Source: Trichonephila inaurata
Lineage: Eukaryota
DNA length: 29,281 bases
Direction of reading: 5' to 3'
Assembly (NCBI GenBank): GCA_019973955.1
Contig: BMAV01009759.1
Span: 96,532 to 125,812 of the forward strand
Position 1 is the stretch's first letter. Every line of letters starts with the position of its first letter. Shown here one piece after another: positions 13,545-15,267 of the stretch. A program made the translations under genes and the position numbers. The notes under the pieces are model-generated. The model had not been told where the DNA came from and ran no database searches. It saw only the letters and a program-made list of their open reading frames with translations.

Positions 13545-13699
13545 GTAAGACTAGTTTTCTCATTGCTTAAAAAATTTGCTGAATTTGTTGAAGCGTGTTA
13601 AATTTTAGTATTTTACTTCTTGAATTCTATAGTTAATTTATTTCTCAAATTTTCTATGAAGCTATCAAATTTATTTCCAAATTTGTGGATTTCTGTTTT

Positions 13700-14350
13700 G
13701 GTATATAGAGAAATTAAAGTGGACGTATAGTATGTTTCCTCGTTTGTATGGTCTCTTTTTATAACATAGTTGACAGAATTAATTAATAAATTTAAGGGAA
13801 TGTCCAGTCATTTCTCTTAAGGAAAAGCGAGAATGGTTATTTTTGCTAATTGTCTAAAACTTATTTCAAAATATAACTTCCCTGGGGTTAATTAATATTC
13901 TCATTGTTCTTAAGCTTGTTCACGCCACTGAAAAAATGTTTTAGCTGTGAAGCAAAATTCTTAAATCTATGTCTGATAATTTTTCGATGGTCTTTGCCAC
14001 ATGTGGTCTAGCCTTGTCAAGATAAATGTTACCACCTTTTCTGTTCGTAAAAGTCGGATACTTACGCTGAATTTGTCTTTAAGAGTTCATGTTGGAAATA
14101 GCAATTCTCCGTTATTCACAATGAAGTGTATTCCTCTATGATTCTTCCAATAAAACAATCTGGCCTTCTCCGAAATTGTGTTTTGGCTGGAAAGAGCATT
14201 TGCTGGTCAAAGGAAATTATATTTTCGATAATAGTAAATGAATAATAGTGTCCTTAGTGAATGACTTGGTGACAATTTGTATGCCAAATGTCGCCATGTT
14301 GCTCAGTTTTGCGACCAAAATACATATGTCTGGAAAGGTCTAAGATTCTT
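13700..14350 (-). mobile_element. Highly degenerate mariner-like transposase remnant in the intron
   Basis: Reverse-strand translation gives short patches resembling mariner C-terminal motifs (PHVAKTIEKLSDIDLRILLHS resembling P.H.....I.ELG.E.LPH, and GIQIVT). The match is weak and interrupted by many stops. Confidence 0.25.
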
Positions 14351-14959
14351 ATTTTGCGAGGAAGGCTTAGAAAGTTCCTTATGGTCTCTTAGGACGATGC
14401 AGGGAAGCAACAACAGATAATTAATGCTTGAGAATGACTGTGTTTTCATTGACTTACGGCAATATTGTGCTGATTGTTTCATAATTAAATCTGTTGTAAT
14501 TACTGGATAGTTACAGAATAAATTACTATTTACTCCGAAAAAACTTAACTTAATGTAAGCCTTTCCTAAATTTGAAAAACGATCCACCTTATTACGGTAT
14601 TTTTAATTTTGAGTTTTATTTTCGCTTTTGCTTTGTTTGTTGGTTTTTGCAAACTACACAGTTTTGTTTCATTTACGATGTAAATTTCTTACTTAAGCAT
14701 AAACCCCATGTATTCAATGATTATCCATTATATATTTGTTTAGTTCGCGCGCGCGTGGATTTTGTTTTCTGTTGATAGATCATGCTCTGATGTATCATAA
14801 GCTGGTTTCAAGTGAAATCACTTTCGTTTTTTCTTTGTCTCTGTCATTTTTTGTATTTTTAAGACTAATATTTAATAAGTACTTTAAACACAATAACGCT
14901 GTACATTTGTACTTCTTAATTATTGAAAATTTTCAGTTTTTGAGCGTAATGCCATTCTT

Positions 14960-15045
14960 TTGATAGAAATGATGATCAGAAATGATATCACTTTAAGTAG
15001 CTTTGGCGATGTGCGGAAGCTAATGATAGACATCTTAAAAGGAAT
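14960..15045 (+). pseudogene. Candidate remnant of the missing NACHT exon between Walker A and Walker B (RNAILLIEMMIRNDITLSSFGDVRKLMIDILKGIAIYPCLS), not spliceable in frame
   Basis: An open frame preceded by ttttcagtttttgag has DITLSSFGDVRKLMIDILKGIAIYPCL, which resembles the human NWD1 segment SSDARGLLKSICFQVCLAYGLP lying between its P-loop and Walker B. Every usable GT donor leaves phase 1 or 0. The Walker B exon (15268) needs phase 2 and the Walker A exon ends in phase 0. Confidence 0.3.
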
Positions 15046-15267
15046 AGCAATTTATCCTTGCCTCAGTTTAAACTCTTAATTAATTTTTTCAATTTTTTAA
15101 AAAAATTGATTATAGTTTTCTTATTTTTAAAAAATTGCTTTTTGATCCATAATCTTAACACACATTCGACTTTTACTATGTTTAAAATAAATTGAAAACA
15201 TTAGGTAATTCGATTTCAGCATGTCTGTTTTATAACTGATAAAGTGAGCTTACTTTTCTTTTTCCAG

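Follow-up and report, generated by a model that had tools for sequence, protein, structure and literature searches.

Can the Walker A and Walker B exons of a NACHT-type gene be joined in frame when nothing recognizable as the exon between them is found? To address this question, we analyzed a 29,281-nt stretch of the Trichonephila inaurata contig BMAV01009759.1 (hereafter, the window). Exon 5 carries the Walker A, or P-loop, motif (GTPGCGKT; 13365-13544, + strand, phase 0 to 0), and exon 7 carries the Walker B motif (DFVLVIDGLDHL; 15268-15412, + strand, phase 2 entry, donor gtaatt at 15413), its protein being identical in T. clavipes. The translation of exon 5 reads ...GTPGCGKTTFV and ends in phase 0 at 13544, immediately before a gtaaga donor at 13545. 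Upstream of exon 7, the translation of which starts with DVMNQFPDILQEAVSSSGNSDFVLVIDGLDHL..., an in-frame TGA occupies 15245-15247 and an AG lies at 15266-15267, and the exon opens at 15268 with one codon-completing base, so that two bases are needed from upstream. Since exon 5 ends in phase 0 and exon 7 needs two bases, an element that contributes 3n+2 bases must lie between them. A first-pass annotation of the locus had placed both junctions in this way, and our comparison bears it out: Araneus (TTFV/VDLL; ...ag/t-gat) and T. clavipes splice at the same phase-0 donor and use the same exon 7 acceptor.

Gene identity and exon inventory

Concatenated exon translations matched the spider "Telomerase protein component 1" of Araneus ventricosus, Trichonephila clavipes (96% identity) and Caerostris extrusa. 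The DUF4062 region aligned with PDB entry 11gz_A, "Telomerase protein component 1" (E=4.4e-56, 194 bits, 214 residues), and with Pfam DUF4062 (E=1.5e-14) over profile positions 1-79 of 82, including the WHTVRIFISSTF strand; directly downstream of it lies a NACHT-type P-loop domain with GxxxxGKT and hhhhDGLD motifs. TEP1, NWD1, NWD2, TTC41 and NPHP3 belong to one TeTIR-NACHT family, whose non-mammalian members are mostly TEP1-like and in which NWD1 is a divergent mammalian branch, with a profile-level relation to TEP1 and an N-terminally truncated TeTIR (10.64898/2026.09.21.753143). The TeTIR-like domain, NACHT and WD40 architecture of NWD1 is common to the family of the window gene (10.64898/2026.09.21.753143), but the protein in the window has a full DUF4062, in contrast to the truncated TeTIR of NWD1 as the preprint describes it. 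Because DUF4062 is complete from position 1 and the direct match to TEP1 is strong, these comparisons indicate that the gene is a spider ortholog of TEP1 (vault/telomerase-associated protein) and not NWD1; the name NWD1 given in the first-pass annotation had captured the right TeTIR-NACHT family and the wrong member. TEP1 has the order TROVE-VWA-TeTIR(DUF4062)-NACHT-WD40, and the window gene resembles it in the position of DUF4062 immediately 5' of NACHT and in its direct similarity to 11gz_A. In the orthologous loci of Araneus, Caerostris and T. clavipes, WD40-rich gene models come next downstream. The source annotations also call the orthologs TEP1. The window copy differs from TEP1 in that it is without the NACHT-core exon (alpha1-beta2-alpha2) and cannot make the protein as written. 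The window holds the middle of this nephilid gene; the WD40 part falls outside it, and TROVE/VWA exons would be expected upstream of it.

Upstream of exon 5, TEP1 exons were located on the + strand at 5354-5422 (..SDTSDGKDVYLGGNTTQLI-K; start approximate, found by tblastn with the Araneus protein P0001, in a part that the T. clavipes locus does not cover), 8164-8328 (FIAERSSGGQLAYVENID...TRVPK; upstream of TeTIR, with AG/GT flanks conserved in T. clavipes), 9118-9294 (first part of TeTIR/DUF4062, WHTVRIFISSTFKDMHCERD...; Pfam DUF4062 and 11gz_A), 10989-11228 (second part of TeTIR/DUF4062, AAEICLLEAQKSDLFIGIIGERYG...; ortholog comparison and 11gz_A), 11893-12006 (SQVPEKWKSYFHSEDPESKQKIEALKSKILSSGLKVYDG) and 13030-13147 (YLCNFAGLLNGKPVLSGLEGFGKSVLKDVWNAVEEMHDE). 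The exons at 5354-5422 and 8164-8328 match the N-terminal part of the Araneus protein, which gave a sub-threshold match to DUF5920 (E=7.8e-4). Downstream of exon 7, also on the + strand, are a NACHT exon at 23952-24236 (GLKLICTASD...RRYASFEN) and exons at 24361-24493 (FMSMLQSLPSAMSLLLQEIILQMENEFG...ITKEG) and 28350-28536 (LDDADLHLLLSMVLLEKEKG...FAYGHN-R). The T. clavipes model GFU38300.1 (P0055) has the same exons and junctions, with 92-100% protein identity per shared exon, 90-93% nucleotide identity in the introns, and transposable element (TE) remnants in common with the window. It differs in having exon 6 (VNMLQKLKNFTVIKFFVGLSPRSTELSFMLQYISNSIGRIFPVSSVFPKLN-R) and the ~3 kb surrounding it.

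Exon 6 of the orthologs and its absence from the window

In T. clavipes, Araneus ventricosus and Caerostris extrusa, exon 6 is a canonical exon of 155 nt that runs from phase 0 to phase 2 (51 codons plus two bases), in agreement with the earlier estimate of roughly 50-80 residues between the two Walker motifs. The T. clavipes exon (L005 15118-15272, cag/GTT...AATAG/gtaatt) is read by GFU38300.1 as ...GKTTFV-VNMLQKLKNFTVIKFFVGLSPRSTELSFMLQYISNSIGRIFPVSSVFPKLNR-DVMNQFPD..., and the Araneus exon (L001 30011-30165, ttacag/GTT...CCAG/gtgaag) encodes VDLLRKLKNFTVIKFFVGLSPRSTELSYMLQYISNSIARTFPVSSVFPKLT plus two leftover bases, which join the first base of exon 7. Caerostris carries the exon at 82% protein identity. 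In the reconstructed protein, matches to Pfam NACHT, AAA_22 and NPHP3_N are continuous across it. With exon 6 present in Araneus and Caerostris as well, its presence is ancestral, and the state of the window is a deletion or an omission.

Exon 6 is absent from the window. A six-frame Smith-Waterman search of the whole window with the Araneus peptide reached a raw score of no more than 45, at background level and in unrelated places. Blastn at word size 7 with the T. clavipes exon found only chance matches of 10-15 nt in the window, and sensitive blastn with the whole T. clavipes segment around the exon found only chance matches of 10-40 nt. We also considered that exon 6 might have moved elsewhere in the window, for example into a window-specific 1.29-kb insertion at 15465-16754, and found no match. 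That insertion begins 52 nt past the exon 7 donor and is absent from both T. clavipes assemblies; the sole match found for it was 67 nt to window 1932-1998. The T. clavipes locus in turn has a 6.2-kb insertion (L005 3665-9903) in the intron after the first TeTIR exon, where the source annotation has Tc3-type HTH and DDE_3 genes and the window (9822-9825) has no insertion.

The window is colinear with two independent T. clavipes assemblies at 90-93% nucleotide identity, introns and TE remnants included, and a diverged paralogous copy is a less likely identity for it. By blastn, window 9825-14921 corresponds to L005 9903-14964, and window 14949-15464 to L005 18053-18572, with window 13545-14921 colinear with T. 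clavipes intron 5. The one gap between these blocks is ~3.05-3.09 kb of T. clavipes sequence (L005 ~14965-18052, which holds exon 6) that is missing from the window. It is made up of ~150 nt from the end of intron 5, exon 6 with its acceptor, and ~2.75 kb of intron 6; the older, independent T. clavipes assembly also has ~2.7 kb of it, 3' of exon 6, and is 99.6% identical there. When we extended the flanks by hand, the deletion junction fell at 14916-14932 (no strand assigned), best at 14927/14928, with neither filler nor Ns. The window accordingly holds one fused intron (13545-15267, + strand), in which intron 5, short of its last ~150 nt, runs into the final ~340 nt of intron 6. There are no Ns anywhere in this AT-rich 29-kb window, which apart from the junction is gap-free and colinear, and in T. 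clavipes we found no direct repeats of note flanking the missing segment that could support NAHR or assembly collapse.

An intact NACHT core (Walker A-alpha1-beta2-alpha2-Walker B) was found in T. clavipes and Araneus and not in the window. When exon 5 is joined to exon 7, the translation reads ...GKTTFV-GCNESIS-stop, a frameshift with a stop after 7 codons. A single-sequence AF2 model of P0055 was discarded (pLDDT 34), and an alignment-based AF2 model of the homolog P0005 (mean pLDDT 83) was used instead. In this model, beta1 (278-284) is followed by the P-loop, alpha1 (290-303), beta2 (312-316), alpha2 (326-341), a further helix (351-369) and the Walker B strand (373-378). The equivalent of exon 6 in P0005 is approximately residues 294-353 (BLASTP), so that, within the P-loop NTPase core, exon 6 is predicted to supply most of alpha1, beta2 and alpha2. 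Since its equivalent covers most of this region, any in-frame bypass would still leave the protein without a core strand of the NTPase fold. The first-pass annotation was thus right to expect an exon between the Walker motifs, and right in that the copy, as represented, is unable to encode an intact NACHT ATPase.

Candidate replacement exons

The first-pass annotation had proposed an ORF at 14960-15045 as the only homologous-looking candidate for the middle exon, disrupted by a 1-nt indel near 15030-15045 or followed by a non-canonical donor or a micro-exon. The peptide in question (DITLSS...YPCL, including DITLSSFGDVRKLMIDILKGIAIYPCL) lies at 14984-15064, within a stop-to-stop ORF at 14927-15076 (+ strand) that starts at the deletion junction and is intronic and non-coding. 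Its counterpart in T. clavipes is intron 6 (L005 ~18052-18180), ~2.8 kb downstream of exon 6, and it showed no similarity to exon 6 of T. clavipes, Araneus or Caerostris. Between window and T. clavipes, 10 of 43 residues of the ORF differ over ~11 nucleotide differences, compared with 0 of 48 in the adjoining exon 7. Because nearly every nucleotide change in the ORF alters a residue and exon 7 is identical, this pattern is intron-like and indicates a chance ORF in an AT-rich intron, evolving neutrally. There is thus next to no chance that the ORF is the true middle exon, with a 1-nt indel or a non-canonical donor: it is open and sits between exons 5 and 7, but it is intron 6 in the T. clavipes ortholog, is unrelated to the orthologous exon, and has changed almost entirely by nonsynonymous substitution. 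The proposed indel fails in any case on the absence of the whole 155-nt exon relative to T. clavipes, and the non-canonical donor and micro-exon fail on the canonical 155-nt exon of the orthologs that is missing here.

A broader form of this idea is functional rescue: unusual splicing, or a replacement exon that is cryptic or specific to the lineage, would preserve the reading frame and yield a variant NACHT. We counted 76 stop-free segments of the right phase bounded by AG and GT or GC in 13545-15267 (e.g., 14517-14554, with a GTAAGC donor), and none of them resembled exon 6 (maximum Smith-Waterman score, 24). The earlier statement that the interval holds no phase-compatible exon thus stands in the sense that none resembles exon 6, and does not stand literally, as these 76 chance segments are phase-compatible. 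A TATCCTT sequence, the core of a U12 5' splice site, is present at 15053-15059, exactly where an exon would end in phase 2, and is conserved in T. clavipes with T as the preceding base. In U12-type introns, the 5' site is [A/G]TATCCTT, a branch site resembling TCCTTAAC lies at a distance of 10-15 nt from the acceptor, and there is no polypyrimidine tract. At 15053-15059, however, the intron +1 base is T, not A or G, the acceptor is of the U2 type (polypyrimidine tract and CAG), no branch-site consensus was seen, and in the orthologs an ordinary GT-AG intron starts from another exon; we judged the TATCCTT to be coincidental. Two further candidates were rejected. A GC donor at 15019 (GCTAAT) is weak, and the ORF upstream of it is not conserved. 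Read-through of the gtaaga donor (VRLVFSLLKKF..., loosely like Araneus VDLLRKLKNF) is at odds with splicing at this same phase-0 donor in Araneus and T. clavipes, and the T. clavipes counterpart also runs into stops. As is established for ASCE NTPases, the alpha1-beta2-alpha2 portion of the P-loop fold is not replaceable by a random peptide. Set against the phase-compatible segments and the position of TATCCTT, the lack of any segment like exon 6, the T at +1, the U2-type acceptor, the neutral evolution of the candidate region between species and the demands of the P-loop fold make functional rescue highly improbable.

Age and origin of the lesion

We compared the ten other exons with those of T. 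clavipes; the eleventh, 5354-5422, lies outside the T. clavipes locus and was left out. All ten are open, phase-consistent and AG/GT-flanked, with no stops or frameshifts. Over 1740 nt, there were 20 synonymous and 10 nonsynonymous differences (dS 0.057, dN 0.0073, dN/dS 0.13). When these were polarized with Araneus as the outgroup, 8 synonymous and 2 nonsynonymous changes fell on the window lineage and 5 and 4, respectively, on that of T. clavipes; the synonymous to nonsynonymous ratio expected under neutrality for the window lineage is ~1:3.8. The counts point to strong purifying selection on all the other exons compared, without relaxation on the window lineage.

These results bear directly on whether the gene is a pseudogene, as had been suggested. 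A disabling lesion is present, namely the missing 155-nt exon and the frameshift that results, and this part of the suggestion is upheld; the decay expected of a pseudogene is not seen, given the dN/dS, the 8:2 ratio and the ten intact exons. It is very unlikely that TEP1 was inactivated long ago and is now decaying in the window lineage as an old, fixed unitary pseudogene. Such an origin would fit the disabling exon loss, and the family member TTC41 is a pseudogene in humans (10.64898/2026.09.21.753143), but it conflicts with the low dN/dS, with 8 synonymous to 2 nonsynonymous changes where neutrality predicts an excess of the latter, and with reading frames and AG/GT flanks kept in every one of the ten exons. 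Since the other exons are intact and constrained, the deletion should be very recent, or present in the assembly only.

Of these, a very recent loss-of-function deletion, most plausibly a polymorphic or heterozygous structural variant in the assembled haplotype, is the reading that we prefer, at a probability of roughly 0.52. The deletion would then be present in the animal and not in the assembly only. Slightly in favor of such a real variant are the clean junction and the finding that no repeats of note flank the missing segment in T. clavipes. Several observations weigh against it: a single assembled sequence cannot prove a deletion in the organism; a dN/dS of 0.13, the 8:2 ratio and no other lesion make up exactly the picture that an assembly error would give; and the Caerostris draft is also without exons at this locus, where dropouts may be technical. 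The competing explanation is that the animal has exon 6 and an intact TEP1, and that an assembler, polisher or gap-closer omitted ~3 kb. This is a plausible alternative, at clearly less than even odds. It accounts for the intact and constrained state of all other exons compared, with no relaxation on the window lineage, and it has a parallel in the Caerostris extrusa draft, which is without exons 4 and 5 with no Ns and has a +1/-1 indel pair in exon 2. From these exon gaps and the indel pair, it is evident that spider drafts do not represent the TEP1 locus reliably. An omission is harder to reconcile with a clean junction free of Ns and filler, with the lack of direct repeats around the missing segment in T. 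clavipes that could drive a collapse, and with a window that is elsewhere gap-free and colinear over 29 kb.

For a recent deletion, the events would be as follows. The ancestral gene had the 155-nt exon 6 between its Walker A and Walker B exons, and a deletion of ~3.05 kb would have removed exon 6 completely, together with the 3' end of the preceding intron and most of the following one, fusing the two intron stumps at ~14927/14928. The strong donor at 13545 and the polypyrimidine-CAG acceptor at 15267 are intact, and because they are, the expected transcript joins exon 5 to exon 7 with a shifted frame. Such a transcript would probably be degraded by nonsense-mediated decay, or would yield a stub without NACHT and WD40, and the outcome would be a loss-of-function allele. 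Exon-deletion null alleles and unitary pseudogenes (e.g., human TTC41P) are alike in that an internal exon with a length not divisible by 3 is lost, causing a frameshift and a premature stop, but the window copy differs from them in having no secondary decay and a constraint like that of a working gene. The event, whether exon deletion or dropout, is of a known kind in a known gene, and the cause of the odd-splicing signal is a mundane one.

A real deletion would make the window copy a natural TEP1 null allele, with which the tolerance of spiders to TEP1 loss could be examined, and it would be a single polymorphic lesion rather than a new mechanism. A further reading, in which the deletion is real and fixed and the TEP1 NACHT-WD40 module is being lost in orb-weaving spiders, is quite unlikely. 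It would combine the missing exon 6 of this nephilid with the Caerostris extrusa locus, where exons 4-5 are missing and a TeTIR motif is scrambled. If it were true, these spiders would be left without TEP1, or with a TROVE-VWA-TeTIR stub no longer under its STAND regulator. TEP1 has recently been reported as an active TIR-like NADase inside vault particles (10.64898/2026.05.01.722283; 10.64898/2026.09.21.753143), and such a loss would amount to a naturally occurring knockout or truncated form of the vault NADase. The main value of the present finding is for annotation, as the TEP1 models that gene predictors produce here will come out split or truncated; those of T. clavipes, Araneus and Caerostris are all fragmented at this locus.

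In the Caerostris locus, TEP1 exons 4 and 5 (Walker A) were undetectable at L004 26441-31551, in an assembly without Ns. In exon 2 (L004 25066-25100), +1 and -1 indels 25 nt apart scramble the conserved EICLLEAQKSD of TeTIR. The Caerostris sequence indicates that either the gene is decaying or the draft has many errors. In Araneus, at least three separate models cover TEP1 (P0001, P0003 and a WD40 model), and P0001 ends by reading through the exon 6 donor (...KLTR*). Within the 7.7-kb Araneus intron 6 (L001 30166-37874) are LINE (RVT_1, Exo_endo_phos) and Tc5 HTH genes. This fragmentation of the Araneus gene is a predictor artefact and not a lesion. A 38-aa exon in the T. clavipes model GFU38300.1 (HMSCEVQLQ...AENGRG; L005 20741-20854, equal to window 18632-18745) falls in the TE-rich intron 7. 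The Araneus protein does not have it, in the homolog P0005 it is aligned to a gap, and it is probably spurious.

The introns of the window also carry transposon remnants. A stretch at 13960-14060 (- strand; ...DKARPHVAK...) looks like a degenerate mariner-like element by eye, and Pfam searches of three-frame translations of the intron that contains ARPHVAK gave no matches. Other remnants lie at 6273-7181 (+ strand) and at 2928-3128, 18836-19240 and 140-1350 (all - strand), and comprise a Tc1/mariner DDE_3 transposase (E=6e-6), an RVT_1 reverse-transcriptase fragment (E=1e-8), a sub-threshold DUF4817 HTH and a zinc-knuckle-like gag ORF.
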